Shown one piece after another: positions 901-58,328 of a DNA stretch of 64,000 nucleotides. Made by a program: the position numbers and the translations under genes. The stretch spans positions 1,024,001 to 1,088,000 of the forward strand of contig NZ_JAQNDL010000001.1 of NCBI RefSeq assembly GCF_028368995.1, read 5' to 3'. Position 1 is the stretch's first letter. Each line of letters starts with the position of its first letter. Origin of the DNA: Nannocystis bainbridge. Its GTDB lineage: Bacteria > Myxococcota_A > Polyangia > Nannocystales > Nannocystaceae. The notes below the pieces were generated by a model. The model saw only the letters and a list, made by a program, of their open reading frames with translations, was not told the origin of the DNA and made no database searches.

Positions 901-3900
901 TTACTCGGTGCGCGCCATCAGCCAGCGCGTCAGACCATCTCTGTCTCTCGGGACATCCGCGGCCCGGCCCAGCGCCTCTGTGAACGGCCCGGGGGCGTCC
1001 CCACGGGTCGGCGCCAGCAGGCCCAGGCCGAGCGACCTGACGTGGAGCTCCTGCTGCAGCACGACGATCTCGCCGAGCACGAGGTCGAGCCGCAGCACCG
1101 AGTCGTCGACGTCGTGGATCAGCAGCTCGTCCTCGGCGACGAACGCGAGCTCCTGGGCCCCTGCGGGCAGCAGGTGCTCGCGGCCCGGGTCGTCCGCGCC
1201 CGCGAGCACCTGCACCCCGTAGCCCGCGGTCGTCACCGCCACGAGCGCGCCGCTCGGGCTGAACGCCAGGCGAGGGTACGGCTCCAATAGCAGCGACCGG
1301 CGCGTCACCACGCCGTCCTCGTAGAACGCCAGGGTGTCCGTCCCCTGCAGCGCGATCGCGGCTGCCGAACCGCGCGGGTCGAGGGCCACGATCGGCGGGG
1401 TTCCGCTTCGCACGCCACGCACGCCGCCGATCAGCACCGGCGCGCCGTCGCCGACGTGCAGGCCGAACACCATGTCCGAGCTCGTGTGCGCGATCAGGTC
1501 GGTGCCCGTCGCGGTGGCCCACAGCTGCAGGACCTCACCGTCGAGCTGCCAGCGCGCCGGCGGGCCCGCGCCGGTGAACGCGAGCACGGTGCCGTCGGCC
1601 AATCCGAGCGCGTACGTGTCCCCCGACTCGGCCAGCGCGACCGCCCGGACCGGGTCATCGGCGGCGATGATCGAGCCGACGCCGTCGCCCTCGATCAGGC
1701 AGGCGCCACGCTCGCGGCCGACGATCAGCGCCCGGCCGCGGCCGTCGCAGGCCCGACGTGACGGCCGCCCATAGTCTTGGACCAGATCGAGCTGCAGGGG
1801 ACACATCACGCGGCTGCGGCGGCCGTCGCGGATCCGCACGAGCTCGGGCTCGCCGCGGCCCCCGAGCGAGACGGCGATGGCGTGGCTGTCGTCGGGCGCA
1901 GCCGCGAGCCACCTGTCCTTCCGGACATGTGGTAAAGGCTCGGGCCGCCACCACCATAGATCACGGCCCCGCGTGCCGACGAACCCCCCGTCAGTCGTGA
2001 ACGCGCCGCGCTCGTGCTCGCCGCCGGCCAGCGCGCGGAAGATCCGCCCGCTCTCCACCGACCACAACAACCAGCGACCGTCATAGCGGCTCGCAAACCG
2101 ATCGCCGGCGTCGGCCACCGTGAGCTCGCTCTGGCTCTCGGCGAACGCCTGCCGCTGCGCGAAGGAGCGGTAAAGGTCGGTCTCCCACAGCGACTCCCCT
2201 GACTCGAGATCGATCCGCACCAGCTGCGGCTCGTCCATGCTCGGGGGGAGGTCCGGCCGCTTGCGCAGCACGAGCGCCCGATCGTCGCGCGAGATCGCCA
2301 GCGGGCGGCCTTCGAGCGGCCGCGTGGTGCCGTCGCGCAGAGACAGCGCCTTGCCGGGCTCGAGCAGCCACAGCCCGCTGGGCGCGAACATCGTCGGAAT
2401 GCGCAGGTCAGGGAGCGGTGTGATCTCGTCGCCCGTCACCAGGAGGGCCGTCTGCTGCACACCGCTGACGGCGATCGAGCGCCCATCGGGGCTCATCGCG
2501 GCCCGGAGGGACCGCGGGAACGGCAGCGCGGTCATCGGCGCCGGCCGCATCGTCAGGTCCCAGGTGTAGGCCGCCGCCGGGTCGAGCCACCCGAGTCCCA
2601 TCACCCCGAGCGACGCCAGGGTCTCGCCGCCCCGCGACATCTCCCATCGGTGCGACGTGAGCCCGGCGCCGATCGGCAGCGACGACAGATCGATCGCCTC
2701 CGGCGCCTCCTCGCCGCGGACGATCACGCCGTGCGATCCGGCCAGCGCCGCCCACACGGGCGCCTCGGCGGCGGCGACCACCGAGCCGAACGGCGCCGCC
2801 AGATCGATCACCGATTCGCCGCGACCTGTCCCCAAGTTCCAGCGCCGCACGACCCCGCCGCCGTCGATGCTCACGAGCCCGCCGTCGGCCAGCGGCGCCA
2901 CGCGCTCGACCCGCCGCGCGTGCCCGCGGAGCACCCGATCCGGCGCGCCGCGGACGATCGCCGCGACGGCGACGGCGCGGGCCCTCCGAAGGTCGAGCGG
3001 ATCGCTCAGGTCGACCTCTCGCAACAGTCGCAGCGCCTCGGCCGGATCGTCGTCGAGGCCGCCGCGCGCCTGCGCCAGCACCGCGTCGTTGGCTCGCCGC
3101 CGCGCCTCGGCCTCGGCTGCCTCCGCGCGCGACCTGGCGGCCTCGAGCCCGCGCACGTACACGATCGACCCCGCCGCCACGGCCACCAGCACCGCCGCGG
3201 CCGCCGTCACCGCGACGCGATGACGCCTGAGCCACAAGCGCAGCAGCTCGCCCGCCTGATAGCGGTGCGCGTCGACCAGCCGCCCGGCCGCGAACCGCCG
3301 CAGATCGTCGGCCAGCGCCGCCGCCCCGGGATAGCGATCACCTGGCCGCGGGGACATGGCCTTTTGTGCGATCGCCACCAGCTCGCGCGGCGCCTCGGCG
3401 GCCAGCGGACGCAGGTCCTCGACCTCCTCGGCGAGCAGGCGCTCCAGCAGCTGCGACGCCTCCAGCGACGCGTGCGGCGGGCGCCCGGCCAGCACGTGGA
3501 ACAGCACCGCGCCGAGCGCATAGACATCGGTGCGAGCATCGACCGTCGCGCCGCGGGCCTGCTCCGGCGGCATGTAGCGCAGCGTGCCGACGACCGCCCC
3601 GACGCCCGTCGCGTCGCCCGCCGCGGCTGCGCCCTCGCCCGCCGACTCGCCGGGCTGCGCCGCTCGGGTGTCCTTGGCCAGGCCCCAGTCGATCACCACC
3701 GTCTCGCCGTGCGGGCCGATCAGGATGTTGCTCGGCTTGAGGTCGCGGTGGACCACCCCGTGCTGGTGCGCGTACGCGATCGCGTCGGCGGCCGCGAGCA
3801 CGTGCGCCACCAGGCCGATGCGCCCGCGCAGGCTCGGCTCGTCGGCGATCACCCGCGCCAGCGACTCGCCCTCGACCAGCTTCATGCAGTAATAGGGCTC

Positions 3901-4317
3901 GCCGTCGGCGAAGGAGCCCACGTCGTGCAGCGGCACGATCCCCGGGTGCTGCAGCCGCGCCGTGATGCGGGCCTCGAGCGCGAACCGCCGCGCCGCCTCC
4001 GGGTCGCGCCGCCGCAGCGTCTTGATCGCCACCGTGCGTCCCAGATGGCGATCGTATGCGCGCCGGATCACCCCCAACCCGCCGGCCGCGAACACCTCGC
4101 CGATCGCGTAGCGCTCGTCGCCCTCCGGCCCGTCCGCCGCCTCGGACGCGTCACTCAGGCGATCGACGCGCGCCAGCAGCCGCGCCCGTGCTTCGCGGAT
4201 CGCCGTCGAGGGCGCGGGGTCGGGGTGGAGTGCGAGCGCGGGCACGTCGGATGGGGCCTCGCTGGACATGTGCCGCGACGGCGGCTCGTGATCCCCGCCC
4301 CCCGATCTTTTTTTCAC
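901..4317 (-). CDS. Ser/Thr protein kinase with hydrophobic segment and C-terminal WD40-like beta-propeller
   Basis: VAIK, HRDLKPSN, DWG, GTLRYMPPEQ motifs; LRGHARRV...VRRWNL WD-type repeat. Start overlaps the upstream sigma stop (GTGA); a slightly later ATG (MSSEAP) is possible. Confidence 0.92.
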   Translation of the reverse strand: MKKRSGGGDHEPPSRHMSSEAPSDVPALALHPDPAPSTAIREARARLLARVDRLSDASEAADGPEGDERYAIGEVFAAGGLGVIRRAYDRHLGRTVAIKTLRRRDPEAARRFALEARITARLQHPGIVPLHDVGSFADGEPYYCMKLVEGESLARVIADEPSLRGRIGLVAHVLAAADAIAYAHQHGVVHRDLKPSNILIGPHGETVVIDWGLAKDTRAAQPGESAGEGAAAAGDATGVGAVVGTLRYMPPEQARGATVDARTDVYALGAVLFHVLAGRPPHASLEASQLLERLLAEEVEDLRPLAAEAPRELVAIAQKAMSPRPGDRYPGAAALADDLRRFAAGRLVDAHRYQAGELLRLWLRRHRVAVTAAAAVLVAVAAGSIVYVRGLEAARSRAEAAEAEARRRANDAVLAQARGGLDDDPAEALRLLREVDLSDPLDLRRARAVAVAAIVRGAPDRVLRGHARRVERVAPLADGGLVSIDGGGVVRRWNLGTGRGESVIDLAAPFGSVVAAAEAPVWAALAGSHGVIVRGEEAPEAIDLSSLPIGAGLTSHRWEMSRGGETLASLGVMGLGWLDPAAAYTWDLTMRPAPMTALPFPRSLRAAMSPDGRSIAVSGVQQTALLVTGDEITPLPDLRIPTMFAPSGLWLLEPGKALSLRDGTTRPLEGRPLAISRDDRALVLRKRPDLPPSMDEPQLVRIDLESGESLWETDLYRSFAQRQAFAESQSELTVADAGDRFASRYDGRWLLWSVESGRIFRALAGGEHERGAFTTDGGFVGTRGRDLWWWRPEPLPHVRKDRWLAAAPDDSHAIAVSLGGRGEPELVRIRDGRRSRVMCPLQLDLVQDYGRPSRRACDGRGRALIVGRERGACLIEGDGVGSIIAADDPVRAVALAESGDTYALGLADGTVLAFTGAGPPARWQLDGEVLQLWATATGTDLIAHTSSDMVFGLHVGDGAPVLIGGVRGVRSGTPPIVALDPRGSAAAIALQGTDTLAFYEDGVVTRRSLLLEPYPRLAFSPSGALVAVTTAGYGVQVLAGADDPGREHLLPAGAQELAFVAEDELLIHDVDDSVLRLDLVLGEIVVLQQELHVRSLGLGLLAPTRGDAPGPFTEALGRAADVPRDRDGLTRWLMARTE

Positions 4318-5007: not shown

Positions 5008-5091
5008 CGCCCAACGGGACATGTCCGCCTCGACATGCTCCGAAGCACATGCCCGATGAGACATGCCCCTTACGACATGTCCTTCGCGCCA
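5008..5091. repeat. Array of six 14-bp TGTCC-N4-GGACA-type palindromic units
   Basis: CGCCCAACGGGACA|TGTCCGCCTCGACA|TGCTCCGAAGCACA|TGCCCGATGAGACA|TGCCCCTTACGACA|TGTCCTTCGCGCCA, exact 14-bp period. Confidence 0.85.
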
Positions 5092-6845: not shown

Positions 6846-8651
6846 GTGCCCGCCTCGCGCCCCTGGACTGTCCTGAGCGTCCTCGCCGTGTCAGCCGGTC
6901 TTTTGGGCCTGGCGCGCGAGGCCGCCGCCGACGAGCCGATCCTCGTCGAGTTCCACTACACCCCGGTGCCCGACGTCCAGATGGCGATCTGGCTCGAGGA
7001 TCAGGACGGCAACTTTGTGCAAGACGTCCTCGTCACGCAGGCCACCGGCAAGTACGGCATCGGCAACCGGCCCGGCATCTGGAACTTCGTGTCGAGCTGG
7101 CGCGCGCCCTACGGCCCGCGGCAGAACGTGCTGCCGGTGTGGTCGCACCGGCGCGGCAAGAAGTACCCGCGGATCGTCTTCCACGACGACAACCCGGCCG
7201 ACCTCGAGTCGCTCGGCTGGCACGAGAACAGCAGCTCCGCCGAGAACTACTACTGCCGGCCGCTGACCGCCTCCGAGCACGAGACCATCTCCGTCGACAC
7301 CAAGACCTGCCCCTCGCCCAAGGTCTTTCAGTCCGACAAGGGCCGCTTCGATCCCAAGGGCAACCAGGTGTTCTACCCGCCGCGCAACGACCTCGTCGAC
7401 TTCGAGGCCGGCGGCGACCACGAGGACATCAAGCAATACGCCGACATCAATGACCTCGACGCCGTCACCGCCGCCACCCCGGTCGGCGACATGGCCGAGT
7501 TCACCACCCTGCTGCTGTCGCCCGAGGCGGTCGCCAAGGGCCCGCTGACCGCCTACGTCGAGGTCAACCTCGAGCGCGACGAGAACGCCGACTTCGACTA
7601 CGACCGCGAGGACGACCACTTCGTCGACACCCGCCTCGAGAACTACGGCATCGAGTTCCTCGGCCAGCCCTCGGTCGTCTACAAGGTCGCGTTCGACCCG
7701 CGCGAGCGCGAATTCGTCGGCACCACCCAGTACCTCGGCTACGGCGACTGGAACGGCGCCACCGGCTCGCTGCACCCCGCCGACGGCAAGCTCAGCGAGT
7801 CGAACGGCAGCGGCGCCGACCGCCTGCGGATCATGAGCAAGAACGGCGACACGTTCCGCTGGGGCGTGTTCTCGTACGGCAAGGACAGCGGCGGCACCAC
7901 CACCAGCGACGGCTCGGACACCGGCGACGGCACCGGCGACGGCACCGGCGACGGCACTGGCGCCACCGGCGAGCAGACCACCGACAGCGACAGCGGCGAC
8001 GACAGCGACGGCTGGGGCCAGTGCGGCCAGATCGCCCCGCTGGCCCCGATCGACGACCTCGCGCTCGCCGGCATGTCGTTCGACCGCGTCCAGCTCAGCT
8101 TCCGCATGCCCGCGCAGCCGGACCCCGACTTCTCGCTGACCAAGATCCACGTCTATCACATCACCGGCGACAACCCGCTGACCGACGAGCTGCTCGGCGC
8201 GGCCTTCCTCAAGACCTTCAGCGCCGCCGAGCTCGCGGCCACCGAGGGCCTGGTGACGCTCGAGATCGGCGAGCTGTGGGGCGACTACACCTACCAGTTC
8301 GCGGTCGTGTACGAGGACAAGTGCACCAACCGCAGCCCGATCGTCGGCGCCGAGATCACGACCCAGGCGCAGGAGTTCCAGACCGTCGACAGCTTCTGCT
8401 TCGTCGCCACCGCCGCCTGGGGCGCCCCGTGGGCCGCCCAGGTCGCCGCGCTGCGCTCGTTCCGCGACGCCTACCTCAAGACCACCCCCACCGGCATCGA
8501 CCTGGTCCGCTTCTACTACGCCTACAGCCCGCCGCTGGCCCGCGTCATCCAGCACGAGCCGCTGCTCCGCGGCCTCGCCCGCGTCGTCCTCCAGCCGGTC
8601 GCCGACGCCGCCGGCCTGGCCACCCGCGCCCAGCCGACCCATGGCGGTTAG
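6846..8651 (+). CDS. Secreted protein: DUF2271-like N-terminus, FN3-like domain, C-terminal CFI-box-CTERM-like domain
   Basis: Signal peptide; QMAIWLEDQDGNFV...LPVW...DAVTAATP; C-terminal FCFVATAAWG...LRSFRDAYL...FYYAYSPPLA. Confidence 0.8.
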   Translation: MPASRPWTVLSVLAVSAGLLGLAREAAADEPILVEFHYTPVPDVQMAIWLEDQDGNFVQDVLVTQATGKYGIGNRPGIWNFVSSWRAPYGPRQNVLPVWSHRRGKKYPRIVFHDDNPADLESLGWHENSSSAENYYCRPLTASEHETISVDTKTCPSPKVFQSDKGRFDPKGNQVFYPPRNDLVDFEAGGDHEDIKQYADINDLDAVTAATPVGDMAEFTTLLLSPEAVAKGPLTAYVEVNLERDENADFDYDREDDHFVDTRLENYGIEFLGQPSVVYKVAFDPREREFVGTTQYLGYGDWNGATGSLHPADGKLSESNGSGADRLRIMSKNGDTFRWGVFSYGKDSGGTTTSDGSDTGDGTGDGTGDGTGATGEQTTDSDSGDDSDGWGQCGQIAPLAPIDDLALAGMSFDRVQLSFRMPAQPDPDFSLTKIHVYHITGDNPLTDELLGAAFLKTFSAAELAATEGLVTLEIGELWGDYTYQFAVVYEDKCTNRSPIVGAEITTQAQEFQTVDSFCFVATAAWGAPWAAQVAALRSFRDAYLKTTPTGIDLVRFYYAYSPPLARVIQHEPLLRGLARVVLQPVADAAGLATRAQPTHGG

Positions 8652-9369
8652 CCCCCTCGCCGCGGCCCTCGCCGCGCTCGCGCTGGCCGCCGCGCCGGCT
8701 GCCCCTGCGAACATGTCCCCTGCGCCAGGTCCCTGGGAACCTGTCGCTGTGGACATGTCCCCTGAGACACCCTTCGGCCCGCTGCCCGCGACCTCGGGCC
8801 AGCCGCGCCCGGCCCCGAGCCCGCCCGGCCCCGCGGCTCAGCCCGCGAACGGCCCCGCGAACGGCTCCGCGCCCCCGCCTGGTCCGGGCCCCGCCGCCGG
8901 GCCTGGCGCGCGCACGCCGACGGCGACCTCGCCCGGCCTGGCGACCCCCGGCATGCCCGGCCCCGCCTCTGCGCCTGTCCCTTCGGACAGGCCCACCGAA
9001 GCTGTCCACCCGGCCAGCCCGCCGGTGCCCGCCGAGGCCGTCGCCGGGCCGCCGCTGGTCGAGGGCCCCGCCCCGGCCCCCGGCGGCCGCCTGTGCCACG
9101 GCTCGGGCGCCTGTCGTCGCCTGCTGATCCTCGGCGGCGTGGCGGGCGGCCTCGGCCTCGGCGCCATCGCCACCGGCGTCGCCCTGCTGGCCCGACCGCT
9201 CGCGCTCGATCCCGAGGACCCGACCGCGCTCGTCACCTACCGCCCCGCCGGCGCCGCCCTCCTGGCCGTCGGCGCCGGCCTGGCCGCCACCTGGCTCCTC
9301 ACCCTGCTCGCCGCCCGCAAGGCCGGCCGCCTGGCCCAGCGCCTGCGCGCCGCAGTGGCTGTCCCGTGA
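8641..9369 (+). CDS. Pro-rich exported membrane protein
   Basis: Signal-like N-terminus, Pro/Ala-rich linker, two C-terminal hydrophobic helices; overlaps the upstream stop. Confidence 0.6.
   Translation: MAVSPLAAALAALALAAAPAAPANMSPAPGPWEPVAVDMSPETPFGPLPATSGQPRPAPSPPGPAAQPANGPANGSAPPPGPGPAAGPGARTPTATSPGLATPGMPGPASAPVPSDRPTEAVHPASPPVPAEAVAGPPLVEGPAPAPGGRLCHGSGACRRLLILGGVAGGLGLGAIATGVALLARPLALDPEDPTALVTYRPAGAALLAVGAGLAATWLLTLLAARKAGRLAQRLRAAVAVP
8700..8769. repeat. Five 14-bp palindromic units embedded in a CDS
   Basis: TGCCCCTGCGAACA|TGTCCCCTGCGCCA|GGTCCCTGGGAACC|TGTCGCTGTGGACA|TGTCCCCTGAGACA. Confidence 0.75.
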
Positions 9370-13610: not shown

Positions 13611-14471
13611 ATGCTTGGACTACGCTTCAGCCGGCTCGTGCACGCCGCCATCGCCAGCGGCGCGCTGATCCTCGCCGCCTGCCCGCAAGGCGGCAAGGGC
13701 GACACCGACACCGATACTGACACCGGGACCGCGAGCGACGGCTCGACCACCGACGATCCGACCGGCCCGCCGATCGATCCCACGCCGCTGCCGCCGGACC
13801 CGACCAACCCGCTGCCGCCGCCCGATCCGCCGCCCGCCGACGTACCGCCCGCGCTGCTCGCCGTCAAGCTGCTCGACCCCTCGACCCTGCAGCTCAGCTT
13901 CACCGAGCCGCTCGCGCCGGTCGGCACCGTCAACCCCAAGCGCTTCCGCCTCAGCGTGGCCCAGGGATATTTCGGCAGCTACGGCGGCCAGCCGAACACT
14001 ACCCTCGTCGACCCGCGCTACTACAACCTCGAGGCCTACTGCCCGCCAGAGCCGCCGCCCTGCTACTACGAACCCCCTTATTATTGCTACTACACGCCCG
14101 GTTGTTATTATCAGAGCACCGGCGCGGTCGAGGCCATCGGCGTGGCCCCGCTGGACGGCGACCCGAGCTCGCTCCTCATCGCGCTCGGCACCCCGATCCA
14201 GCCGTCGCTGTGCTCGACCCTCGACGTGTTCAAGGACGACCCCAACTTCAAGATGGTGCTGCACCTCCACTACGCCGCCGGCGGCCTGTCGCAGCTGCAG
14301 GACCTCGGCGGCCAGGCCGTGCCTTCTCTCGGCGACGCGTGGGTCAAGTACGACGGCGGCTTCTACAGCTACGCGGGCGTGGTGTTCTCGACCCTCGACC
14401 CGTTCTTGCCGATCCCCTGCGAGCTGTCCGACGTCCCCCAGCCTCCCGACATCCCCGAGTCGAACGACTGA
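13611..14471 (+). CDS. Lipoprotein with Ig-like domain and Tyr/Cys-rich insert (paralogue B)
   Basis: Same N-terminus as 12312 (MLGLRFSRLVHAAIASGAL); shares VNPKRFRLS, LHLHYAAGGL and PFLPIPC. Confidence 0.85.
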   Translation: MLGLRFSRLVHAAIASGALILAACPQGGKGDTDTDTDTGTASDGSTTDDPTGPPIDPTPLPPDPTNPLPPPDPPPADVPPALLAVKLLDPSTLQLSFTEPLAPVGTVNPKRFRLSVAQGYFGSYGGQPNTTLVDPRYYNLEAYCPPEPPPCYYEPPYYCYYTPGCYYQSTGAVEAIGVAPLDGDPSSLLIALGTPIQPSLCSTLDVFKDDPNFKMVLHLHYAAGGLSQLQDLGGQAVPSLGDAWVKYDGGFYSYAGVVFSTLDPFLPIPCELSDVPQPPDIPESND

Positions 14472-44487: not shown

Positions 44488-45615
44488 CTACCCGAGCTCG
44501 GCCAGGCCGCCGGTCAGGCCCAGCGCCTTGAACAGCTCGGCCAGCTTCTTGGCGGGGATCCGCTTGCTCGCCGCGGCCTCGACGCGCGGCATGGCGAACG
44601 CGAACGCGTCGAGGTCGGCGAAGCCGCGCTCCGCGTCGAACGAGTCGCTCTCGTGCTCGTAGCCGAGCACGCGGCCGGTGGTGGTGTCGAGCAGGTGCAT
44701 GTTGCCGGAGCCGTCGGCGGACAGGCCGACGTAGCGCTCGTCGGCCGCGCCCGCCAGCCCCTGCTTCACGCAGTCGAAGCCGTACGTGCCCGACACGTCG
44801 AAGCGCTGCCCGAGCCACGGGAACCGGCCGCTGCGGACCAGCGCGTCGAAGGCCCGGGCGGCCGCGCGATGCCCCTCCGGCAGGCGGTCGATCCACTGCG
44901 CCAGCGGACGGGAGTCGGCGGCCAGCTCGGTGACGCGACGGCCGTTCGGGAAGAACGCCGCCAGGTCGCGCTCGAACTCGCCGCGCGCCACGTAGCCCGG
45001 CAGGCTCGCTGGCGTCGCCTCCTGGCCCCACGCCTTGATCGGCTTCGGTTGCACGATCTCCTGCCCGTCGCGGTCGAAGAACGCGGTGCTCTTGCGCTTG
45101 CCGTCGACGAACTCGGACACCCCGCGGTGCGGATGCGGCTTCGGCAGCTTGACGTCGTGTGCGCCGATCACCGTGTCACCGAAGCGGAGGATCTCGCCCT
45201 CGGTGATCTTCAGCCAGTCGAAGCGGCCGTGCAGCCGACCGCCGCGCCACGACGCGACCAGGGCGACCGCGCCGAACGGATAGCCGTGAAAGGTCGCGCG
45301 GACGATCGCGCCGTCCTCGTACACCGCCTCGATGCGGGTGGTCAGCGACGGGCCGATCGGGAGCCCGTACTGCTGCTGCAGCGCGATCGCGGCCCGCCGC
45401 GGCTCCTCGCCGTAGTTGAACTCGGGGTGGTTGGTGACCCACTCGACCGCGCCGTGGAGCTTGCCGGCGCGCAGGTTGGCGTCGAGCAGCGGCTGGCCGT
45501 CGCGATACCAGCGGCGGACCACGGTCTCGCTGTCCTCGCGCCACTGCGCGGACTCGGGATCGTAGGTGGCGGAGGCCGGGACGTGCTCGGGACGGGGCGG
45601 GCTGGCGGCGGTCAT
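44488..45615 (-). CDS. Hypothetical protein with MORN-like repeats and SMI1/KNR4(SUKH)-like C-terminus
   Basis: RRWYRDGQ...GKLHG and GRLHG repeats; C-terminal LSADGSGNMHLLDTTTGRVLGYEHE. Confidence 0.65.
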   Translation of the reverse strand: MTAASPPRPEHVPASATYDPESAQWREDSETVVRRWYRDGQPLLDANLRAGKLHGAVEWVTNHPEFNYGEEPRRAAIALQQQYGLPIGPSLTTRIEAVYEDGAIVRATFHGYPFGAVALVASWRGGRLHGRFDWLKITEGEILRFGDTVIGAHDVKLPKPHPHRGVSEFVDGKRKSTAFFDRDGQEIVQPKPIKAWGQEATPASLPGYVARGEFERDLAAFFPNGRRVTELAADSRPLAQWIDRLPEGHRAAARAFDALVRSGRFPWLGQRFDVSGTYGFDCVKQGLAGAADERYVGLSADGSGNMHLLDTTTGRVLGYEHESDSFDAERGFADLDAFAFAMPRVEAAASKRIPAKKLAELFKALGLTGGLAELG

Positions 45616-45719: not shown

Positions 45720-45863
45720 TGTCTCTTAAGACATGTCCAATGGGCCATGTCATCGCGCGTCAGGGCGGCGACGTCGGCGCGCACGGACGAACATGTCCCC
45801 GGGGACATATTTTAAACAGCATGTCCGCGAGAACATGCCCGATCGCGCATGTCCGGGCGGACA
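45720..45863. repeat. Two adjacent arrays of 14-bp palindromic units
   Basis: TGTCTCTTAAGACA|TGTCCAATGGGCCA at 45720; TGTCCCCGGGGACA|TATTTTAAACAGCA|TGTCCGCGAGAACA|TGCCCGATCGCGCA|TGTCCGGGCGGACA at 45794. Confidence 0.85.
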
Positions 45864-45870: not shown

Positions 45871-46356
45871 TCACGCCCGCCGCGCGGCCGGCTTCTTCGC
45901 GCTCTTCTTCTTCTTGTGCGAGCACGGCCCGCCGCGCTTCTCCAGCCGCGCCAGCTCCCCCGCCAGGGTGCGCTCGGCCAGCACCGCCAGGCTCGCCTGC
46001 TCGAGCTCGTGCGACAGCTCGCTGAACATCAGCTCCATGTTGGCCGTGACGACGCAGCGGCGCGGGATGTCGGAGCGGCCGGCGAACAGGCCGCGCTCGC
46101 CGAGCACCGCCAGATAGACCTCGCGCAGCGTGATCGCCCCGGCCGGCCGGGCCAGGCGCGAGCCGCCCTTGACCCCCATCGTCGTGACGATCAGGCCCGC
46201 CGCCGCCAGCGTCGCCAGCAGCTTGCGGATCAGCGACGGGTTGGTCGCCAGCCCCTCGGCCAGCGCCGAGGACGAGAGCAAGCCCGCGTCCTCGCGCTCG
46301 GCGAGCGCCAGCATGAGCATCAGCTGCAGCGCCGAGGCGAACCGAACGTCCACCAT
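45871..46356 (-). CDS. Rrf2 family transcriptional regulator
   Basis: RFASALQLML, SSSALAEGLATNPSLIRKLL, GVKGGSRLARPAGAITLREVYLAV. Confidence 0.93.
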   Translation of the reverse strand: MVDVRFASALQLMLMLALAEREDAGLLSSSALAEGLATNPSLIRKLLATLAAAGLIVTTMGVKGGSRLARPAGAITLREVYLAVLGERGLFAGRSDIPRRCVVTANMELMFSELSHELEQASLAVLAERTLAGELARLEKRGGPCSHKKKKSAKKPAARRA

Positions 46357-49062: not shown

Positions 49063-49380
49063 TGCCCGGGATGCTAAGCCAACCCGGGCCCTCGCGGGGC
49101 GCGCGGCGCTCGTGAACTAGCGCGTGGTCCCGCCCGGATCATGCGCGGCCACGAGCCATGAGTCCGCATCCTCGGGCGTGCGGCGGAGCGCGCAGTCACG
49201 CGCTGTCAAATTCGCCTCGTGGAAGTCAAAGGCCCGCTCGCGACCGGCGCCAACTGCACAGTTATTCAGCCCGCGCGAGCCCGTAGGCGGGCTCCTAGGC
49301 CCCTGAATTCCCCGAATTGTTGCCCCCGCGGCGCCCGATCTGATAGCGCCGCCCAGGTGCCCAGCAGCAAGAACCGCCGG

Positions 49381-50895
49381 ATGGCCACGGGCCGGCGCAA
49401 GACCACTCGCCGGACCGAGGGTCTGCGCGCGTGGCTCGGCCTGCAGACCTCCAGCCGGCCGGCGACGCGGATGACCCGCAACCGCCGGATGACCGAGGAG
49501 CAGCGGCAAAAGGCCGCGCGGGCCTACGTCGACCCGGTCGAGCGGAAGACCCGCAACCGGACCGTCGCGCTGCTGATGCTGCTGGCGGTGGTCAACCTCT
49601 ACGTGTTCGTGTGGCGTGAAGGCACCAGCGTGCTCGAGCTCGGGGCCCCGCGGGCCGCCGCGATCGTCGAGCACGACGACCGCGGCCACGGCCCGCTCGG
49701 CGCCTTCGCCGAGCCGCCCGAGACCGCCTGCGGCAGCGACCCGGTGCGCATCTTCGAGGGCCTGCACGACCAGATCCACCAGGCCACCACGCTCGACAAG
49801 GGCCGGACCCTGCGCCTCGCGCTGCTCGAGCTCGGCGTCGCCGCGGCCGAGATCGACGCGCTCGAGGCGGCCCTACGCCCCACCATCGACCTCGGCCTGG
49901 TCGCCGGGACAGGTGCCCCGCTGCGCTTCGCCACCGACCGCCACGGCGCGATCCTCGCGGTGGAGATCGAGCAAGCCGAGGGCCGCCTGCTGCAGGCCTG
50001 TCGCGCCGGCGGCCAGAGCGGCATCACGGTCCGGGCGATCCAGCACCCGCCCGTCAGCGACGTGGTCGCGGTCCACCTCGAGCTCGGGGCCGACGCCGAT
50101 CTGCGCGCCGCCGTGGTCGGGGCCGGCGAGCGGCCGGAGCTCGCCGACCGGATCGCCGCGGCGCTGGCGTTCGAGGTCGACCTGGTCGCCGACGCCCGCC
50201 CGCGCGACCGCATCGACCTCGTCATCGAGCGCCGCTTCCTCGGCAAGCAGTTCCACCGCTACGGCAGCCTGCTGGCGGTGCGCTTCCGCGGCGAGGCCGG
50301 CCGCTTCCTCTCGTTCCGCTTCCAGACCGGCGGCGGTCAGGCGGCCTACTTCGACGCCGAGGGCAAGCCGGTGCGCCGCACCCTGCTGCGCTCGCCGCTG
50401 GCCTTCCACGCGCTGCACTCCGGCGCGCGGGCGATGATGCCGCCGTCCGTCGAGGTCGTGGCCGGCCGCGCCGGCGCGCTCTACCGCCGCCCCGAGGGCG
50501 CGCCCGTGGTCGCGCTCGGCGACGGCGTGGTCCGCTCGCTCGGCGAGCAAGGCGACGCCGGCCTGGTGCTCGAGCTCGCCTACGAGGACGGCACCGTGGC
50601 CCGCTACGCCCACCTCTCGCGCACGCTCGGCGATCTGCGCCCGGGCCAGCCGGTCCGCCAGGCCCAGCTCGTCGGCCTCGCCGGCCACTCCGGCAAGACC
50701 GCGACCGACCGCGTCCGCCTCGAGCTGTGGCGCGAGGACAACGGCGAGGCCAGCGTGCTCGACCCGCTGCTGCTGGCCGCCGGCGGCGACCGCCGCCCCG
50801 CCGTGGTCGGCGCCCCGCTCAAGGGCACCTCGCTCGAGCGCTTCAAGCTCGAGATCGCCCCGTGGCAGAAGGCCCTGCGCGAGACGGCGAACTGA
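49381..50895 (+). CDS. M23/LytM-family membrane protein, catalytically degenerate
   Basis: TM helix; MepM-like body (YFDAEGK...LLRSPL, PEGAPVVALGDGVV, YAHLS, VGLAGHSG); the HxxxD and HxH Zn ligands are absent; start uncertain. Confidence 0.82.
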   Translation: MATGRRKTTRRTEGLRAWLGLQTSSRPATRMTRNRRMTEEQRQKAARAYVDPVERKTRNRTVALLMLLAVVNLYVFVWREGTSVLELGAPRAAAIVEHDDRGHGPLGAFAEPPETACGSDPVRIFEGLHDQIHQATTLDKGRTLRLALLELGVAAAEIDALEAALRPTIDLGLVAGTGAPLRFATDRHGAILAVEIEQAEGRLLQACRAGGQSGITVRAIQHPPVSDVVAVHLELGADADLRAAVVGAGERPELADRIAAALAFEVDLVADARPRDRIDLVIERRFLGKQFHRYGSLLAVRFRGEAGRFLSFRFQTGGGQAAYFDAEGKPVRRTLLRSPLAFHALHSGARAMMPPSVEVVAGRAGALYRRPEGAPVVALGDGVVRSLGEQGDAGLVLELAYEDGTVARYAHLSRTLGDLRPGQPVRQAQLVGLAGHSGKTATDRVRLELWREDNGEASVLDPLLLAAGGDRRPAVVGAPLKGTSLERFKLEIAPWQKALRETAN

Positions 50896-50899: not shown

Positions 50900-50983
50900 T
50901 GGCCGCGAGGACATGCCCCGAAGGGCATGTCCCCGAGCCCATGGCCCGAAGGACATGTCCACACGGACATGTCCTCTCGTCAC
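50900..50983. repeat. Array of six 14-bp palindromic units filling the gap between convergent genes
   Basis: TGGCCGCGAGGACA|TGCCCCGAAGGGCA|TGTCCCCGAGCCCA|TGGCCCGAAGGACA|TGTCCACACGGACA|TGTCCTCTCGTCAC. Confidence 0.88.
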
Positions 50984-51708
50984 ATCATCGCCACGTCGAG
51001 CAGCAGGCCCTTGAGCGCCGCGTACTCGCCCATCATCGACAGGTCGTGCTCGGTCAGGTTGAACACGCCGACCGGCGCGCCGTCGCGGTCGAGGATGATG
51101 ACATCGCGATAGACCACCTCCCACTGGGTCCACGCGTCGACCTCGGCCACGTCTTGCAGCAGCGGGATCTTCCGTCCCCCGGCCATTTGCGGGATCGCCG
51201 ACTCGTAGCCGATCCCGTTCACTCCCAGCAGCGCGATCCCCAGGGCCGGGAACTCGCCGTCGAGCTCGATCTGCAGGTCATTCAGGTAGCCGAACTGGCT
51301 ACGGCAATAGCCTCAAGTCGCGTGCGCGAAGTACCAGCCGGACACCTGGCCCGCGTAGTCGCTGCGGGCCCGCGTCTGCTCGTAGGTCGCCGACTCGGGG
51401 TTCACGTCGACCAGCGCCCAGTTCGGCGCCAGCTCGCCGGGCTCGCCGGTGGTGTCGGTGTCGGTGTCGCCGGTCGAGGTCGTCGGCTCGCCGGTCGTCG
51501 GCTCGTCGCCGGTGCTGGTCGTCGGGACAGGTCCCGAAGTACCTGGCCCCGAGGTCATGGTGGAGCCGCCCGTGGTCGGCCCGGTCTCGGTCTCGGCGCC
51601 GGTGCTGGTCGGCCCGCCGGTGCTCCCGGTGGCCGTCGTGTCCGAGCCGCCGTCGGGGCAGCCGGCGAGCGCCAGCGCGCACACGTAGAAAGATCGTCGT
51701 GGGTTCAC
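50980..51708 (-). CDS. Probable selenoprotein: thioredoxin-fold (TlpA/AhpC-TSA-like) lipoprotein with UxxC; Sec at TGA 51315-51313
   Basis: ORFs 51313-51708 and 50980-51222 are in frame and separated only by one TGA: APNWALVDVN...WYFAHAT-U-GYCRSQFGYLNDLQ...LLGVN...VIILDRDG; 242 aa in total. Confidence 0.85.
51276..51312 (-). promoter_or_regulatory. Putative bacterial SECIS element
   Basis: mRNA after UGA: GGCUAUUGCC-GUAGCC-AGUUC-GGCUAC-CUGAAUGACC; 6-bp upper stem, GU-containing loop starting 16 nt after the UGA, weaker lower stem. Confidence 0.7.
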
Positions 51709-52615: not shown

Positions 52616-53239
52616 TCAGTATCCGTCGGGGATCTTGCCGTTCAAGAAATGGATCGTGTTCGGCTCGCGCCGCCGCGACCACAGCGCCTCGACCGGAGTG
52701 TCGGCTGTCCCTCGGGACAGGCCCTCCTGCGTCGACCAGCCCGGCACCTCGCCGGCGCGCAGGCTGTGCAGCCCGCTCTGCCACACGCCGATGATGTACG
52801 TGTGCCCGGCCGCGCGCCCGCCGAAGAAATCGGTGAAGCGGCGCGCGAACTCCTGCCCGCGCGCCGCCCCGAACGCCTCGCAGGTGCGAAACCACCACAG
52901 GTGATCGGGCACCATGCGCTCGCGGATCGCCGCGAGCTTGACGTGCAGCGGGTGCGTCGGCAGCAGCGCGTCGGCGGTCAACCCCTTGCGATCGACGAAC
53001 AGCTCGCCCCAGTGGCCGTGCCCCCAGTACTGGATCTCGGCGATCTCGCGCCCGGGGTGGGTCGTGGCCAACCACTCGAGCCCGTCCTCCCAGCAGGTCA
53101 CCCCGTGCGCCGCGTCGAACCGCGACAGCCCGCGGTACAGGTGCGCGCCGGCCCCCCACGCGTGCGACAGGCCCGGCCGCAGGCGCTTGCCGGTGCAGGT
53201 GCGGTCGAACAGCATCAGGCGCAGCGGAGCGGAGCGCAT
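52616..53239 (-). CDS. Hypothetical protein
   Basis: 207 aa, EIQYWGHGHWG and WWFRTCEAFG motifs; TACACT 7 nt upstream of the ATG. Confidence 0.75.
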   Translation of the reverse strand: MRSAPLRLMLFDRTCTGKRLRPGLSHAWGAGAHLYRGLSRFDAAHGVTCWEDGLEWLATTHPGREIAEIQYWGHGHWGELFVDRKGLTADALLPTHPLHVKLAAIRERMVPDHLWWFRTCEAFGAARGQEFARRFTDFFGGRAAGHTYIIGVWQSGLHSLRAGEVPGWSTQEGLSRGTADTPVEALWSRRREPNTIHFLNGKIPDGY

Positions 53240-54284: not shown

Positions 54285-56861
54285 ATGCCGCAGCGCCGCG
54301 CCCTCCGTCCCTCGCCGCTCCCGCTCCTCGCGCTCGCCTGCGCCGTCGCCTGCGGCGATGAACCGGCCGACGACGCCGGCGCCACCGACAGCGACACCGA
54401 TACGACCACCGCCGCCAGCGCGACCTCGGAGGCCGCGCCGACCACCAGCGGGACCACCGCCTGGGAGGAGGAGACCGAAAGCGAGCCCGAACAGCCGGTC
54501 ACCGTCGAGTGGTCCGAGCTCGAGCTGCGCCTGATCCGCGGCGGCGACGTCCTGCTGCGCTTCCCGGCCGACGGCTTCCAGCTCGGCGTGGTCGCGGCCC
54601 TCGACGACGACTCGTCGTACGACCCGGTGTTCCTGGCGCCCGACGCCTGGCGCACCGTCACCGCCGCCGAGGAGCTCGCCAGCGACGCCGCGGTCGACGT
54701 GCGCCTGTCCTTCGGGACAGATCTGCACGCGCGCCTGACCGTCACCGAGGCCGCCCCCGGGCGGTTCGCCGCCAGCCTGATCCCCGAGCCCGGCGGACCG
54801 GCCCTCGCGTACATGCGCCTGCGCCCCGTCGTCGACCCGGGCGAGGGCTTTTATGGCCTCGGCGAGTACTTCGACGCCGCCGAGCACCGCGGGCGCGTGC
54901 GGGCGATGCAGCTCGAGTACGACCCCCAGATCGAGAGCCAGTACAACGAGGCCCACGTGCCGGTCCCGTTCGTCACCGGCACGCGCGGCTGGGGCATGTT
55001 CGTCGCCGACCCGCACGCCGCGGTGTTCGACGTCGCCGCCGCCGCCGCCGACCGCGTCGAGGCGACCTTCGGCACCGGCCCCGACACCGCCGCCGGCCTG
55101 GTCTTTCACCTCTACGCCGCCGACCACCCGCTCGACGTCACGCGCCACTACTACGCCACCACCGGCGCGCCGAAGCTGCCGGCCCCGTGGGCGCTGGGCC
55201 CGTGGATCTGGCGCGACGAGAACGACGACCAGGCCCAGGTCGAGGAAGACATCGCCACCATCCGCGAGCTCGACCTGGCGACCTCGGCGATCTGGATCGA
55301 TCGCCCCTACCAGAGCGCCGTCGGGGTGTTCGACTGGCACGCGACCCAGTTCCCCGCCCCGCAGGCGATGATCGGCAAGATCCACGACCTCGGCCTGCGG
55401 CTCGCGCTGTGGCACGTGCCCTACGTCGACGACGTCCCGGCCGCCGCCGCCATGCGCGACGAGGCCGAGGCCAATGATTTCTTCCCGCCCGAGGTCGGCC
55501 TCATCACCTCCGATTGGGGTGAGCCGCTCGATCTCACCAATCCCGACGCGTTCGAATGGTGGCAGGACCACATCCGCGAATACACCGACCACGGGATCGA
55601 CGGCTTCAAGCTCGACTACGCCGAGGACATCACGGTCGGCCTCGGCGGCGCGCGCACGGTCTGGCAATTCGCCGACGGCAGCAGCGAGCGGACCATGCAC
55701 AAGCTCTACCAGCTGCTCTACCACCGCGCCTACGCCGAGCTGCTGCCCGAGGCCGGCGGCTTCCTGCTGTGCCGCGCCGGCACCTACGGCGATCAGCAGA
55801 ACGTCAGCGTGATCTGGCCCGGCGACCTCGACGCCAACATGGCCGCGCACCGCGAGCAGGTCGACGACGACGGCGACACGTACGTGGCGGTCGGCGGCTT
55901 GCCAGCGGCCCTCACCGCCTCGCTCAGCCTCGGCCCCAGCGGCTTCCCCTTCTTCGCCTCCGACACCGGCGGCTATCGCCACGCGCCGCCCGATCGCGAG
56001 ACCTTCGTCCGCTGGTTCCAGTACACCGCGCTCACCCCGGTCATGCAGGTCGGCACCGGCTCGTCCGACGTGCCGTGGGAGTTCACCCCGGCCAACGGCC
56101 TCGACGACGAGAGCCTGGCCTGGTACCGCCAATACGCGCGGCTGCACCTGCGCCTGTTCCCGTACGTGTGGACGCACGCGCAGGCGCTGGCCACCGGCGG
56201 CCGCCCGCTCCAGCGCCCGCTCGGCCTCGCCTTCCCCGAGCTCGGCGTCCACCCGTCCGACGCCTATCTGCTCGGCAACAACCTGCTCGTCGCGCCCGTC
56301 GTCGCTCGCGGCGCCACCTCGCGCAAGCTGTCCCTGCCGCCCGGTGCCTGGCTCGACTGGTGGACCGGCGAGGTCCTGCAGGGCGACCAGGAGGTCACCG
56401 TCGCCGCCCCGCTGGCCACCCTGCCGCTGTTCCTGCGGGTCGGCGGGATCGTGCCGATGCTGCGCCCGACCATCGACACGCTCGCGGAGGCCACCGCGGC
56501 CGACGTCGACTCGTTCGTCGGCGACCCCGGGATCCTCCACGCCCGCATCGCCCCCGGCCCGCTCGGCAGCCGCTTCGACCTGTACGATGGGACAGCTCTG
56601 CACCAGCGCCTCGGCAAGGCCGCGCTGCACCTCGAGGTCAGCCCCGGCGCGGTGTTCACCAGCGGCTTCGACCTCGAGATCCACGCGCTCCCGCCGATCG
56701 CCGCCGTCACCGTCGACGACGCCCCGCTGAGCCAACACCCCGACGCCCCTGCGCTCGACGCCGCCCCCGACGGCTGGTTCCACGGCAGCGACCTCGGCGG
56801 CACCCTGCGCCTCAAGCTCGGCCCCGGCGCGCACACCGTGGTGGCCACGCTCGCCGAGTAG
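54285..56861 (+). CDS. GH31 glycoside hydrolase lipoprotein (alpha-glucosidase/xylosidase-like)
   Basis: LACAVAC lipobox; FYGLGE, LPAPWALG, GFKLDYAE (nucleophile), WPGD (acid/base), ASDTGGY, LLVAPV. Confidence 0.93.
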   Translation: MPQRRALRPSPLPLLALACAVACGDEPADDAGATDSDTDTTTAASATSEAAPTTSGTTAWEEETESEPEQPVTVEWSELELRLIRGGDVLLRFPADGFQLGVVAALDDDSSYDPVFLAPDAWRTVTAAEELASDAAVDVRLSFGTDLHARLTVTEAAPGRFAASLIPEPGGPALAYMRLRPVVDPGEGFYGLGEYFDAAEHRGRVRAMQLEYDPQIESQYNEAHVPVPFVTGTRGWGMFVADPHAAVFDVAAAAADRVEATFGTGPDTAAGLVFHLYAADHPLDVTRHYYATTGAPKLPAPWALGPWIWRDENDDQAQVEEDIATIRELDLATSAIWIDRPYQSAVGVFDWHATQFPAPQAMIGKIHDLGLRLALWHVPYVDDVPAAAAMRDEAEANDFFPPEVGLITSDWGEPLDLTNPDAFEWWQDHIREYTDHGIDGFKLDYAEDITVGLGGARTVWQFADGSSERTMHKLYQLLYHRAYAELLPEAGGFLLCRAGTYGDQQNVSVIWPGDLDANMAAHREQVDDDGDTYVAVGGLPAALTASLSLGPSGFPFFASDTGGYRHAPPDRETFVRWFQYTALTPVMQVGTGSSDVPWEFTPANGLDDESLAWYRQYARLHLRLFPYVWTHAQALATGGRPLQRPLGLAFPELGVHPSDAYLLGNNLLVAPVVARGATSRKLSLPPGAWLDWWTGEVLQGDQEVTVAAPLATLPLFLRVGGIVPMLRPTIDTLAEATAADVDSFVGDPGILHARIAPGPLGSRFDLYDGTALHQRLGKAALHLEVSPGAVFTSGFDLEIHALPPIAAVTVDDAPLSQHPDAPALDAAPDGWFHGSDLGGTLRLKLGPGAHTVVATLAE

Positions 56862-57178: not shown

Positions 57179-57220
57179 TGTCACGAAGACCATGTCTGAT
57201 AGGACACGTCCATCGCGACA
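57179..57220. repeat. Three 14-bp palindromic units
   Basis: TGTCACGAAGACCA|TGTCTGATAGGACA|CGTCCATCGCGACA. Confidence 0.7.
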
Positions 57221-57596
57221 GTGACGCCGCCCCACCCGGCGCTCCGTACGCGGATCCTTCAGCCCTCCCATGCCTCCAGAACCGGCCCCACGGCGGGGTC
57301 GCGCGCCGCCACGCCGAAACGCCGCCAGGGCCCCGATCTGCCGCCAGGTGCCCCCGGATGAGCTTCGGGTTTTGCGCAGCCCATCAAGAATCCATCATGG
57401 CCGGGTTTTTCGCCTCTTTGCCGCCTGCAGCCGCGTTCGCGCCCTATCCAGCCCCGCGTGCCGGCGATCACCGGCACAGACGGACGCGTCGCCCCGCAGA
57501 ACGCTGGAGGTCTCGCTCCCTGACGATCGGAAACCGGAGCGCCGACAGTGGCGCGCTCCAGTTGCACCCCCCCGGGACCAGGTCCATTACCGGGTC

Positions 57597-58328
57597 GTGC
57601 TACCGATCCTTCACATCCATGCAGGTGACTGCGCCGCCGGGTTCGCTCGCGAGATCGACCTCGAAGGCGAAGTGCTCGGTTGGCGCGACAGCGCCGCGGT
57701 CGGACCGGTCTCGCGCGAGCGCGGCCGGCACGTGTTCCTCCGCATGGCGTTCTGGCAGACGGACCTCGCGGAGATCCAGCGGGCCGAGGAGCTGCCGTCC
57801 GATTGCGAGCGTGTGTTGTGGTTCGGTCCCGACCCGTGGGAGCAGCTCCAGCTCGTCGAGCTGCTGGCGTACATGTCCGATGGGCCATGTTCGATCGTGC
57901 CGCTGAGCCGGGCGGTGACCGAGCTGACCCCGAGCGAGCTGCAGGCCGCCTTCGTCGCTCGCCGCAACGCCGAGTCGCTGCGGTTCTTCGCCGCCGCCTT
58001 GTGGTTCGATTTCTGCGACAACGACCCGGCCGGCATCGCCCTGCGCCTGCGTCGGGCCGCCAACGACCAGCGCCTGCCGCACCTCGGCGCCGCCATCCGC
58101 CGCGTCCTGCAGGATCGCAACGAGCAGAGGACCGAGCGCGAGATCGAGGATCTGGTGCGCGCCGGCGTCTACGAGCTGCCGGCCCTGCTCGAGGCCCTGC
58201 GCGAGCGCGAGCTCCCGGCCCACGGCGCGTGGTACGGCGACGTCGTGGTCGGCCGCCTGCGCGACGCCTGCATGCGCACGCAAGCGGCCAACGACCTCGC
58301 GCTCAGCGTAGCGTCATTCCTGCCGTGA
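57597..58328 (+). CDS. DUF1835-like protein
   Basis: LHIHAGDCAAG...GEVLGWRDSAAVGPV, VLWFGPDPWEQLQL, WYGD; start inferred. Confidence 0.7.
   Translation: MLPILHIHAGDCAAGFAREIDLEGEVLGWRDSAAVGPVSRERGRHVFLRMAFWQTDLAEIQRAEELPSDCERVLWFGPDPWEQLQLVELLAYMSDGPCSIVPLSRAVTELTPSELQAAFVARRNAESLRFFAAALWFDFCDNDPAGIALRLRRAANDQRLPHLGAAIRRVLQDRNEQRTEREIEDLVRAGVYELPALLEALRERELPAHGAWYGDVVVGRLRDACMRTQAANDLALSVASFLP

Follow-up and report, generated by a model that had tools for sequence, protein, structure and literature searches.

Hyper-abundant words, such as HIP1 (highly iterated palindrome 1), the uptake sequences and the repetitive extragenic palindromes (REPs), belong to the features of bacterial genomes that have gone unexplained the longest. 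Here we analyze TGTCC-N4-GGACA, a palindrome noticed in a 64,000-nucleotide stretch of the Nannocystis bainbridge genome (contig C1:1024001-1088000; hereafter the window, to which all coordinates given without a contig refer). This motif joins the highly iterated genomic palindromes, from which it stands apart as a spaced dyad that forms phased arrays and is biased toward gene ends. The N. bainbridge genome comprises 11.05 Mb in 5 contigs, with 71.5% GC.

The DNA uptake sequences (DUS) of Neisseria and the uptake signal sequences (USS) of Pasteurellaceae are asymmetric 9-12-mers that are present in thousands of copies, occupy the cheapest frames within genes, are enriched after genes, form lineage “dialects” and are absent from foreign DNA; inverted pairs of these words form terminators. 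The Nannocystis motif is similarly lineage-specific, lies after genes and, within them, in the cheapest frames, and is scarce in foreign islands, but a single Nannocystis unit is itself a spaced dyad, and the units stack in a 14-bp phase. REPs are imperfect hairpins of 20-40 nt that are strictly extragenic and tied to REP-associated tyrosine transposases (RAYTs). Roles in mRNA stability, termination and chromosome organization have been proposed for REPs and bacterial interspersed mosaic elements (BIMEs) (bioRxiv 10.64898/2026.03.23.713779). The Nannocystis units, like REPs and BIMEs, are palindromic and cluster at gene 3' ends and between convergent genes, but the unit is only 14 bp long, no RAYT was found in the genome, the constraint lies on sequence rather than on pairing, and 791 of the 1987 perfect copies are inside called genes.

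In the operator arrays of ribbon-helix-helix (RHH) proteins, namely, the MetJ metboxes, the omega heptads and the ParR/ParG iterons, short units that abut in a fixed phase are read by neighboring dimers. The 14-bp unit can be read as two inverted 7-bp heptads, which recalls MetJ and omega, but the arrays of MetJ, omega, ParR and ParG reside at one or a few loci, and no RHH protein was linked to the Nannocystis motif. Chromosome organization also involves dimer-read palindromes of 12-16 bp, including the Noc-binding sites (NBS), the RacA site ram, the MatP site matS, the SlmA-binding sites (SBS) and the ParB site parS, which number in the tens and are confined to, or excluded from, the zone of the replication origin (ori) or terminus (ter). 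A myxobacterial precedent for a nucleoid protein with hundreds of sites is CdbA of Myxococcus xanthus, a sequence-specific RHH protein with 569 peaks in genes and spacers; its site is a GC-rich direct repeat spaced by 4 bp, not the Nannocystis palindrome (PMC7156744).

Among the analogues named in the earlier note on this DNA, HIP1 (GCGATCGC) of cyanobacteria is the closest. PMC5861425 describes HIP1 as 15-300-fold over-represented and conserved both inside open reading frames (ORFs) and in the DNA separating them; recent work points to methylation-dependent uptake (PMC5861425, PMC13756078, preprint 10.1101/2024.09.10.611283), and HIP1 is now proposed to be an uptake sequence read by two methylases (PMC13756078). 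Both HIP1 and the Nannocystis motif are hyper-abundant, lineage-wide short palindromes that are present in and between ORFs and conserved between related genomes, and the function of HIP1 was long unexplained; the enrichment of the Nannocystis motif is of the same order as that of HIP1 or greater. The two differ in that HIP1 is a contiguous 8-mer with two known methylases (PMC13756078) and a phylum-wide range, whereas the Nannocystis motif is a 5-N4-5 dyad with strictly phased arrays and a strong gene-end bias that spans three genera, and no C5 methylase was found in the N. bainbridge genome.

We tentatively favor the interpretation that a lineage-specific protein with two-fold symmetry (a dimer) recognizes TGTCC-N4-GGACA in double-stranded DNA, with bound arrays forming boundaries at gene ends. 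The hyper-abundance of the palindrome is confirmed. The window contains 11 perfect copies, compared with a mean of 0.03 and a maximum of 1 in 100 dinucleotide-preserving shuffles, and 36 sites with at most one mismatch (1.68 expected) or 85 with at most two (25.3 expected), in agreement with the 30 or more loci claimed previously. All 11 perfect copies listed in the earlier note were found where it had placed them, and its 13 mismatched copies were all recovered, nine of them with one mismatch and those at 10580, 28856 and 49898 with two; the GC content of the window, put at ~73% in that note, was measured as 0.70-0.74. Genome-wide, there are 1987 perfect copies with the N4 spacer, and each of the other spacer lengths, 0-3 and 5-12, yields only 0-16, so that the length of the spacer is fixed, as had been proposed. 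Control palindromes with the same arm composition (n=7) occur in 3-83 perfect and 161-509 one-mismatch copies versus 1987 and 4258 for the motif. The enrichment reaches several hundred-fold over these composition controls and, in genes, ~30-fold over a synonymous shuffle, that is, at least an order of magnitude over both composition-aware and codon-aware nulls. Among all 5-Nx-5 palindromes of the N. bainbridge genome, TGTCC-N4-GGACA is the sole outlier that does not consist purely of G+C: the outliers ATGTC-N6, CATGT-N8, ACATG-N10 and GACAT-N12, considered as possible further “dialects”, are the same element read outward. No other hyper-abundant 5-Nx-5 palindrome was seen in small samples of two further genomes (200 kb of G011 and 41 kb of G013).

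The phyletic range of the motif has a clean boundary. All 10 other Nannocystis genomes are rich in it, with 114-2090 copies versus 1-6 for a control motif read backwards; the relatives of N. bainbridge in this genus include Nannocystis sp. RBIL2 as well as the strains FL3 of N. punicea, DSM 71 of N. exedens and Na p29 of N. pusilla. In a survey of 73 genomes of the family, two sister genera are also rich, one (g2) with 87-169 copies in 5 of 5 genomes and the other (g4) with 67-696 in 7 of 7; a further genus (g28, 8 genomes) is marginal, with 5-20 copies and 1-7 for the controls, and the other 42 genomes of the family, from 13 genera, are at background (0-11 copies), as are 300 other Myxococcota genomes that are at least 85% complete (0-18 copies; controls up to 28). 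Thus, the lineage specificity suggested in the earlier note extends to Nannocystis and two sister genera. The motif was not one that the note recognized, and the literature that we searched, with most subscription journals outside its coverage, yielded no description of it or of Nannocystis repeats; a term search of PMC5217627, on spaced motifs in prokaryotes, found no mention of it.

The pattern of tolerated changes within the unit is mirror-symmetric. With the positions numbered 0 to 13, the one-mismatch variants number 227/205 at T0/A13, 29/21 at G1/C12, 946/943 at T2/A11, 205/293 at C3/G10 and 633/756 at C4/G9, so that the constraint on the would-be stem is uneven, the second pair being nearly invariant and the middle pair loose. 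This profile resembles that of an additive binding matrix whose two halves are equal; at arm positions 3 and 4, the commonest variant is C-to-T. When both positions of a pair are changed, the changes show no preference for complementarity, with the exception of TGCCC..GGGCA (146 versus ~87 from the marginals), and, in co-directional intergenic copies oriented by transcription, changes that keep a G.U pair are about as frequent as their mirror images (320 versus 273). Neither a preference for stable tetraloops in the spacer on the sense strand nor a run of T downstream was seen, and no extension of the dyad beyond the unit was found. The spacer shows a symmetric preference for Y-Y-R-R, with A disfavored at the first position and T at the last, and is therefore not wholly free in sequence. 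The flanks fall into two classes, C|unit|G and ACA|unit|TGT, the latter consisting of units that abut neighbors; the extension to CTGTCC-N4-GGACAG that had been noted for isolated copies is present in 5 of the 11 perfect copies in the window and in 413 of the 1987 in the genome.

Comparison with relatives shows that the arms are kept while the spacers drift. From each of two species, N. exedens and N. punicea, some 180 kb was aligned to N. bainbridge, retaining high-scoring segment pairs of at least 500 bp and at least 78% identity and dropping sites without an aligned partner. Arm positions are identical in 233 of 250 cases versus 75 of 100 spacer positions in N. exedens (one indel site dropped; Fisher p 1e-5), and in 216 of 230 versus 63 of 92 in N. 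punicea (three indel sites dropped; Fisher p 1e-8), that is, 93-94% for the arms and 69-75% for the spacers. All ten arm positions are kept in 13 of 19 and 10 of 17 coding copies (control windows, 0.44) and in 4 of 7 and 2 of 9 intergenic copies (controls, 0.18-0.21), whereas all four spacer positions are kept in only 10 of 19 and 7 of 17 coding copies, below the controls (0.68). The mirror-symmetric tolerance, the lack of covariation and of strand bias, and the stronger conservation of arms than of spacers argue for a symmetric protein on double-stranded DNA rather than for a stem in RNA or DNA. Together with the fixed spacer, these features give substance to the remark in the earlier note that the motif looks like the site of a dimeric protein.

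A second distinctive feature is the arrangement of the units in arrays. Distances from one TGTCC to the next peak at 14, 28, 42 and 56 bp (682, 315, 299 and 150 occurrences over a background of 2-70). When chains in the 14-bp phase are counted if at least one member site has at most one mismatch, the genome contains 3631 singles and about 1,700 arrays, of which 1013 are doublets, 355 are triplets and 352 have 4-8 units; the longer arrays are mostly intergenic. Abutting units are also present in the sister genus g4 (41+41 in genome G067 and 9+8 in G056; controls 0). The junction GGACATGTCC between abutting units occurs 956 times but stands alone in only 33 cases, whereas 493 of the 1987 N4 units have no recognizable abutting arm; because the junction is almost never alone and the N4 unit often is, the N4 dyad is the unit. 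Adjacent units share an identical spacer in 81 of 2329 cases and have reverse-complementary spacers in 45 of 2329 (1.6% at random in each case). Because the spacers differ while arms and phase persist, the arrays are neither products of fresh slippage nor long hairpins; long palindromes and cruciforms are ruled out also by the lack of outward extension of the dyad. The earlier note listed some of these abutting neighbors (45794/45850 and 8756) without recognizing the tandem 14-bp arrays. In a called gene on contig C1 (1312890-1312951), three perfect units 21 and 27 bp apart follow the codon phase rather than the 14-bp phase and are all kept in N. exedens, with homogenized spacers; this is possibly a repetitive protein segment that carries the motif.

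The arrays of the window turn over between species (e.g., those at 37857 and 50956), while isolated copies with C...G flanks persist (8976, 52706 and 54706), and alignments with five relatives break at the intergenic arrays of the window. Palindromic multi-copy units that are intergenic, located at gene ends, clustered in arrays like BIMEs, quick to turn over and positioned at synteny breaks could suggest a miniature mobile element of the REP/REPIN or MITE (miniature inverted-repeat transposable element) type, spread by a transposase. Such an origin is highly improbable given that the unit is only 14 bp long and that 40% of the copies are in genes, where they arose without indels. The Y1 transposase domain (PF01797) typical of a REP/RAYT system has no match in the N. 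bainbridge genome, which is 90.5% complete, while the control search gives matches in 6 of 14 genomes; the abutting doublet has no match in 2.9 million viral contigs, and the array at 44150-44480 has none among plasmids. A role of the arrays as cassette boundaries was considered and rejected: some sites are at synteny breaks, but not systematically, and the sites are not systematically at indel boundaries either.

The distribution of the motif relative to genes was assessed with gene calls from a codon-score heuristic (8187 genes covering 84% of the bases), so that the figures that depend on these calls are approximate. Perfect copies number 1180 in intergenic DNA, 791 (~40%) within called genes and 16 at gene edges. 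The density of sites with at most one mismatch is 5.06 per kb in convergent, 1.84 in co-directional and 0.61 in divergent intergenic regions, and a site is carried by 55%, 25% and 15% of these regions, respectively (regions under 20 bp skipped); among regions shorter than 150 bp, the values are 42%, 6-7% and 2%. Where the region measures 150 bp or more, 36% of the convergent and 24% of the co-directional stops have a site no farther than 100 bp away, compared with only 7.6% of the co-directional and 3.3% of the divergent starts, a 5-10-fold bias of stops over starts. The sites are thus tied to gene ends and avoid promoters, which rules out an ordinary regulon and contradicts the description of the motif as gene-indifferent in the earlier note, which missed the gene-end bias. 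The 5-4-5 dyad has the geometry of FNR-type boxes, and yet the operator of a global transcription factor with a large regulon is barely credible in the face of this avoidance of promoters (3.3-7.6% of starts versus 24-36% of stops) and of copies in genes and phased arrays that number in the thousands.

The accumulation of sites 0-100 bp past stops and in more than half of the convergent regions would also fit an element that acts in the 3' untranslated region of RNA, where transcribed hairpins would terminate transcription or protect mRNA 3' ends and a palindrome would serve both convergent directions. Canonical terminators, that is, a hairpin followed by a T-run, show no enrichment over a 20-kb part of the window (8 versus 4.6 +/- 2.0 in shuffled sequence), which would favor such an element, and the array at 44180-44440 folds as RNA far better than shuffles (-169.6 kcal/mol, z -8.9). 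However, the properties of a terminator or structured RNA are missing from the unit itself: there are neither compensatory changes in the stem nor a G.U asymmetry on the sense strand, neither a strand-specific U-tract nor a stable loop, and the five pairs, with the second almost invariant and the middle one loose, form stems of only 5-6 bp without extension. Moreover, ~800 copies inside genes would be unexplained, and no Rfam family matches the window. We therefore consider an RNA-level element quite unlikely.

Along the genome, every 250-kb bin of the five contigs contains 12-79 perfect copies, including across the GC-skew switch of contig C3. Merging sites at most 300 bp apart leaves 3910 loci, spaced 2.8 kb apart on average (coefficient of variation 1.15). 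No ori or ter zone of sites is apparent, ori and ter not being placed on the five contigs, and this distribution differs from the tens of sites in or out of an ori/ter macrodomain that characterize regional systems. The Noc, RacA, matS and SlmA sites invoked previously as analogues, as well as parS, are accordingly a poor fit for 1987 perfect copies in ~3,900 gene-end-tied loci on all contigs. Gaps of more than 20 kb between loci are more frequent than expected (20 versus 3.7), and four of the long gaps were annotated. Two of these are islands of lower GC that carry IS66 and DDE transposases, in one case together with a gene for a TcA-like toxin; one holds efflux, P-type ATPase and hydrogenase genes; and the region of contig C2 that encodes ribosomal proteins, EF-Tu, EF-G, RpoC and L7-L12 (2106447-2131118; GC 0.668, lower than in the whole genome) contains no site with at most one mismatch in 24.7 kb. 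The motif is scarce in DNA that is probably foreign and in the most expressed core operons, and such gaps, too, speak against indifference to genes. The toxin gene itself (C2:2195660-2204767) is a 3036-aa ORF with TcA_TcB_BD, ABC_toxin_N and neuraminidase-like Tc-toxin TcA domains in a 32.5-kb motif-free stretch (GC 0.661) adjoining the IS66 and DDE transposase genes, which looks like an acquired island.

Within genes, the 791 perfect copies compare with 20-27 after synonymous-codon shuffling within each gene and with 2-6 after shuffling of codon order (five shuffles each), so that the genome-wide test against a codon-preserving shuffle proposed in the earlier note comes out in favor of the motif. 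The coding copies use the least costly frames, with rare codons as the price: 448 require one codon ending in T (2.5% of codons), 278 require ACA (1.3% of Thr codons), and 65 require both TGT (8% of Cys codons) and GGA (1.4% of Gly codons). These copies are spread along genes, and the peptides that they encode are diverse. Where a coding copy is not shared in the comparison with the two species, the difference consists of substitutions, not of a unit present in one genome and absent from the other; coding copies are made by substitution rather than by insertion. Their density, measured in the 7107 of 8187 genes that reach 450 nt, drops 12-fold between the lowest codon-score decile (0.191 perfect copies per kb; the lowest bins may include miscalled ORFs) and the highest (0.016); by arithmetic on the deciles, the half of the genes with the higher codon scores still contains at least ~260 perfect copies.

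The main rival to a site of a resident dimeric protein is a “self tag” akin to HIP1 or uptake sequences, read transiently by an orphan methyltransferase, an uptake or conjugation receptor, or a recombination or repair factor, in which case copies would accumulate by drive or selection wherever they are tolerated and the placement at gene ends would be a by-product. Such a tag explains equally well the copies in genes, their frame usage, the lineage boundary and the empty islands. The substitution-made copies in genes and spacers alike, with the cheapest offsets preferred (448 > 278 > 65), their concentration in weakly constrained genes, their absence from lower-GC islands with insertion sequences and transposases, a genus-specific motif that is weaker in sister genera, and the near-Poisson spacing genome-wide are all in line with it, as are the 12 PF01555 (N6_N4_Mtase) and 10 PF02384 (N6_Mtase) domain matches in N. 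bainbridge. The listing of these domain matches linked no methyltransferase to the motif, and the N. bainbridge genome has no match to the C5 DNA methyltransferase domain (PF00145). In view of this negative result, and because no variant at arm positions 3 and 4 is commoner than C-to-T, a drive by Vsr-type repair is unlikely. Furthermore, a tag that is unbound in vivo leaves unexplained both the stop-over-start bias and the strictly phased arrays, in which spacers have diverged while arms and phase are kept, and on balance we regard it as somewhat unlikely. If this were the correct explanation, the motif would be the first HIP1/DUS-like system in Myxococcota.

The origin of copies by point substitution everywhere, their density tracking the level of constraint and their absence from recently acquired islands are compatible, too, with a motif devoid of function that results from a sequence-specific bias in mutation or repair, such as biased gene conversion or templated correction, with selection removing harmful copies. 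This scenario, which we consider very unlikely, requires a factor that recognizes the 14-bp dyad and hence amounts to a version of the protein-site interpretation. It fails to account for the strict phasing of arrays with diverged spacers, and neither a C5 methyltransferase nor a Vsr-type signature was found; conservation of the same kind in HIP1 has been argued by Xu et al. (PMC5861425) to reflect selection rather than neutral replenishment.

Returning to the dimeric protein as the preferred interpretation, we infer from the above that a protein binds the motif, that it is dimeric and that binding has an effect at gene ends. Each subunit would read one TGnCC half-site, in which position 2 (G) and position 4 (C) would make the decisive contacts, and the ~3,900 loci, roughly one per two genes, would be held by selection or drive acting on DNA. 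Sites would be placed where the bound protein costs least or helps most, that is, in the first 100 bp past stops, mainly convergent ones, and would be written by substitution into weakly constrained genes at the cost of rare codons. At abutting units in the 14-bp phase, neighboring dimers may form short multi-dimer arrays, and bound arrays at gene ends could serve as orientation-independent boundaries, either roadblocks to read-through or topological or nucleoid anchors, in a role like that of REP/BIME elements but read as duplex DNA. Occupancy in vivo and a boundary role are suggested because of the 5-10-fold stop bias, the absence from highly expressed operons and the persistence of phase, which a transiently read tag would not obviously yield. 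Thus, from the inference in the earlier note of a cognate protein not evident in the window, the dimeric-site anatomy is supported and the protein is still not evident, while the segregation and occlusion systems with regional sites that it offered as analogues fit poorly.

Several considerations weigh against this interpretation. No binding protein was found in a search for autoregulation among divergent-promoter genes, which covered genes of up to 330 aa that have, in a divergent region, a perfect site no more than 120 bp upstream; 20 of these 24 divergent candidates, alongside which there are 77 co-directional ones, were scanned for domains. The only DNA-binding candidate among the 20 was a TetR gene, with orthologs in 6 of the 10 other Nannocystis genomes and paralogs of 28-38% identity elsewhere, including motif-poor genera; because its phyletic pattern does not match that of the motif, it was rejected as the reader. 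The enrichment at gene ends and avoidance of promoters could reflect tolerance alone, as with uptake sequences, and a roadblock role sits uneasily with ~800 copies inside genes. Part of the coding class, mainly in low-score genes, may be non-coding because the gene calls are rough; a 5-bp half-site with a 4-bp spacer would be equally readable by a non-resident methyltransferase or uptake receptor; and the conservation rests on 26 sites per relative, in two relatives that are not independent.

A more elaborate and rather unlikely form of the proposal is that, in Nannocystis and the two sister genera, a dimeric protein and its ~4,000 sites punctuate gene ends through roadblocks or supercoil barriers and double as a “self” mark. 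Phased arrays past stops would then end or insulate transcription units in a terminator-poor genome of 72% GC, as a protein-based counterpart of REP/BIME elements and intrinsic terminators that is not known from bacteria. Bound boundaries, if they exist, would represent a novel mechanism by which high-GC bacteria delimit transcription units or organize the nucleoid. The motif is unusually informative in its independently decaying half-sites, 14-bp phase, sharp gene-end bias and clean phyletic boundary, and it is present in strains that can be cultured and whose genomes are complete (N. exedens DSM 71, N. pusilla Na p29 and N. punicea FL3), so that the reader protein should be findable and the function testable. 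In practice, it could serve as a signature of native DNA for spotting foreign islands and for designing DNA for genetics in Nannocystis, a natural-product producer.

The copies in the window illustrate these patterns. Of the perfect units in genes, that at 1914-1927 is in a Ser/Thr kinase gene (901-4269, minus strand; Pfam), where N. punicea keeps the arms with a changed spacer; that at 31349-31362 is within the called gene 30737-31567 (plus strand); and that at 52706-52719, within the gene 52616-53239 (minus strand), has its arms kept in 4 of 5 relatives. The unit at 54706-54719 lies within a GH31 glycosidase gene (54285-56861, plus strand), in the frame CTG TCC TTC GGG ACA (L S F G T), and is identical in 5 of 5 Nannocystis relatives; GH31 orthologs from other genera have LSYEG, LTYTS and the like in the same columns, with no indel. 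Isolated perfect units outside genes are found at 8976-8989, with C...G flanks and identical in N. punicea, and at 28170-28183, 76 bp past the stop of a peroxiredoxin gene (27453-28094, plus strand).

Phased arrays include six degenerate slots of 14 bp at 5008-5091 between two minus-strand genes (sites at 5008, 5022, 5050, 5064 and 5078); five slots at 8700-8769, starting 49 bp past the stop of the gene 6903-8651 (plus strand), with a period of 14 in Tandem Repeats Finder; and four slots at 41570-41625 in a convergent region, overlapping the stop of the gene 40018-41577 (plus strand). Doublets are located at 15796-15823, with one perfect unit, at the end of the gene 14773-15786 (plus strand), and at 57193-57220, where two degenerate units are intergenic. 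Between two minus-strand genes at 37857-37940, a perfect unit and an array of three (37899-37940) are degenerate or deleted in four relatives; five abutting units at 50900-50969, one of them perfect (50956), fill the convergent gap between the genes 49357-50895 (plus strand) and 50980-51222 (minus strand) and are degenerate in relatives. Two phased arrays at 45720-45863, with perfect units at 45794 and 45850, lie just past the stop of an Rrf2 gene (45871-46356, minus strand).

The longest array of the window, with ~16 units of 14 bp, is located between convergent genes at 44200-44454. Within it, 44212-44422 consists of 3.0 copies of a 69-bp higher-order repeat with 90% match, each comprising about five 14-bp units, which indicates that multi-unit blocks rather than single units were duplicated there. 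The neighboring 374-aa gene (44488-45615), which has no Pfam match, is flanked by motif arrays on both sides; it is missing from this location in N. exedens and N. pusilla, and its order relative to its neighbors differs in three other relatives. The arrays may favor local rearrangement.

Near the window, core genes carry 1.21 and non-core genes 0.74 perfect copies per 10 kb, counts too small to establish a difference. The segment 14500-32000 aligns to none of the five Nannocystis relatives compared, encodes FG-GAP proteins, Ser/Thr kinases and extracytoplasmic function sigma factors, and is probably strain-specific DNA; within it, 15824-27484 has no site even at two mismatches. At 14419-14624, a 104-bp sequence is duplicated in tandem (2.0 copies, 92% match), with no relation to the motif.

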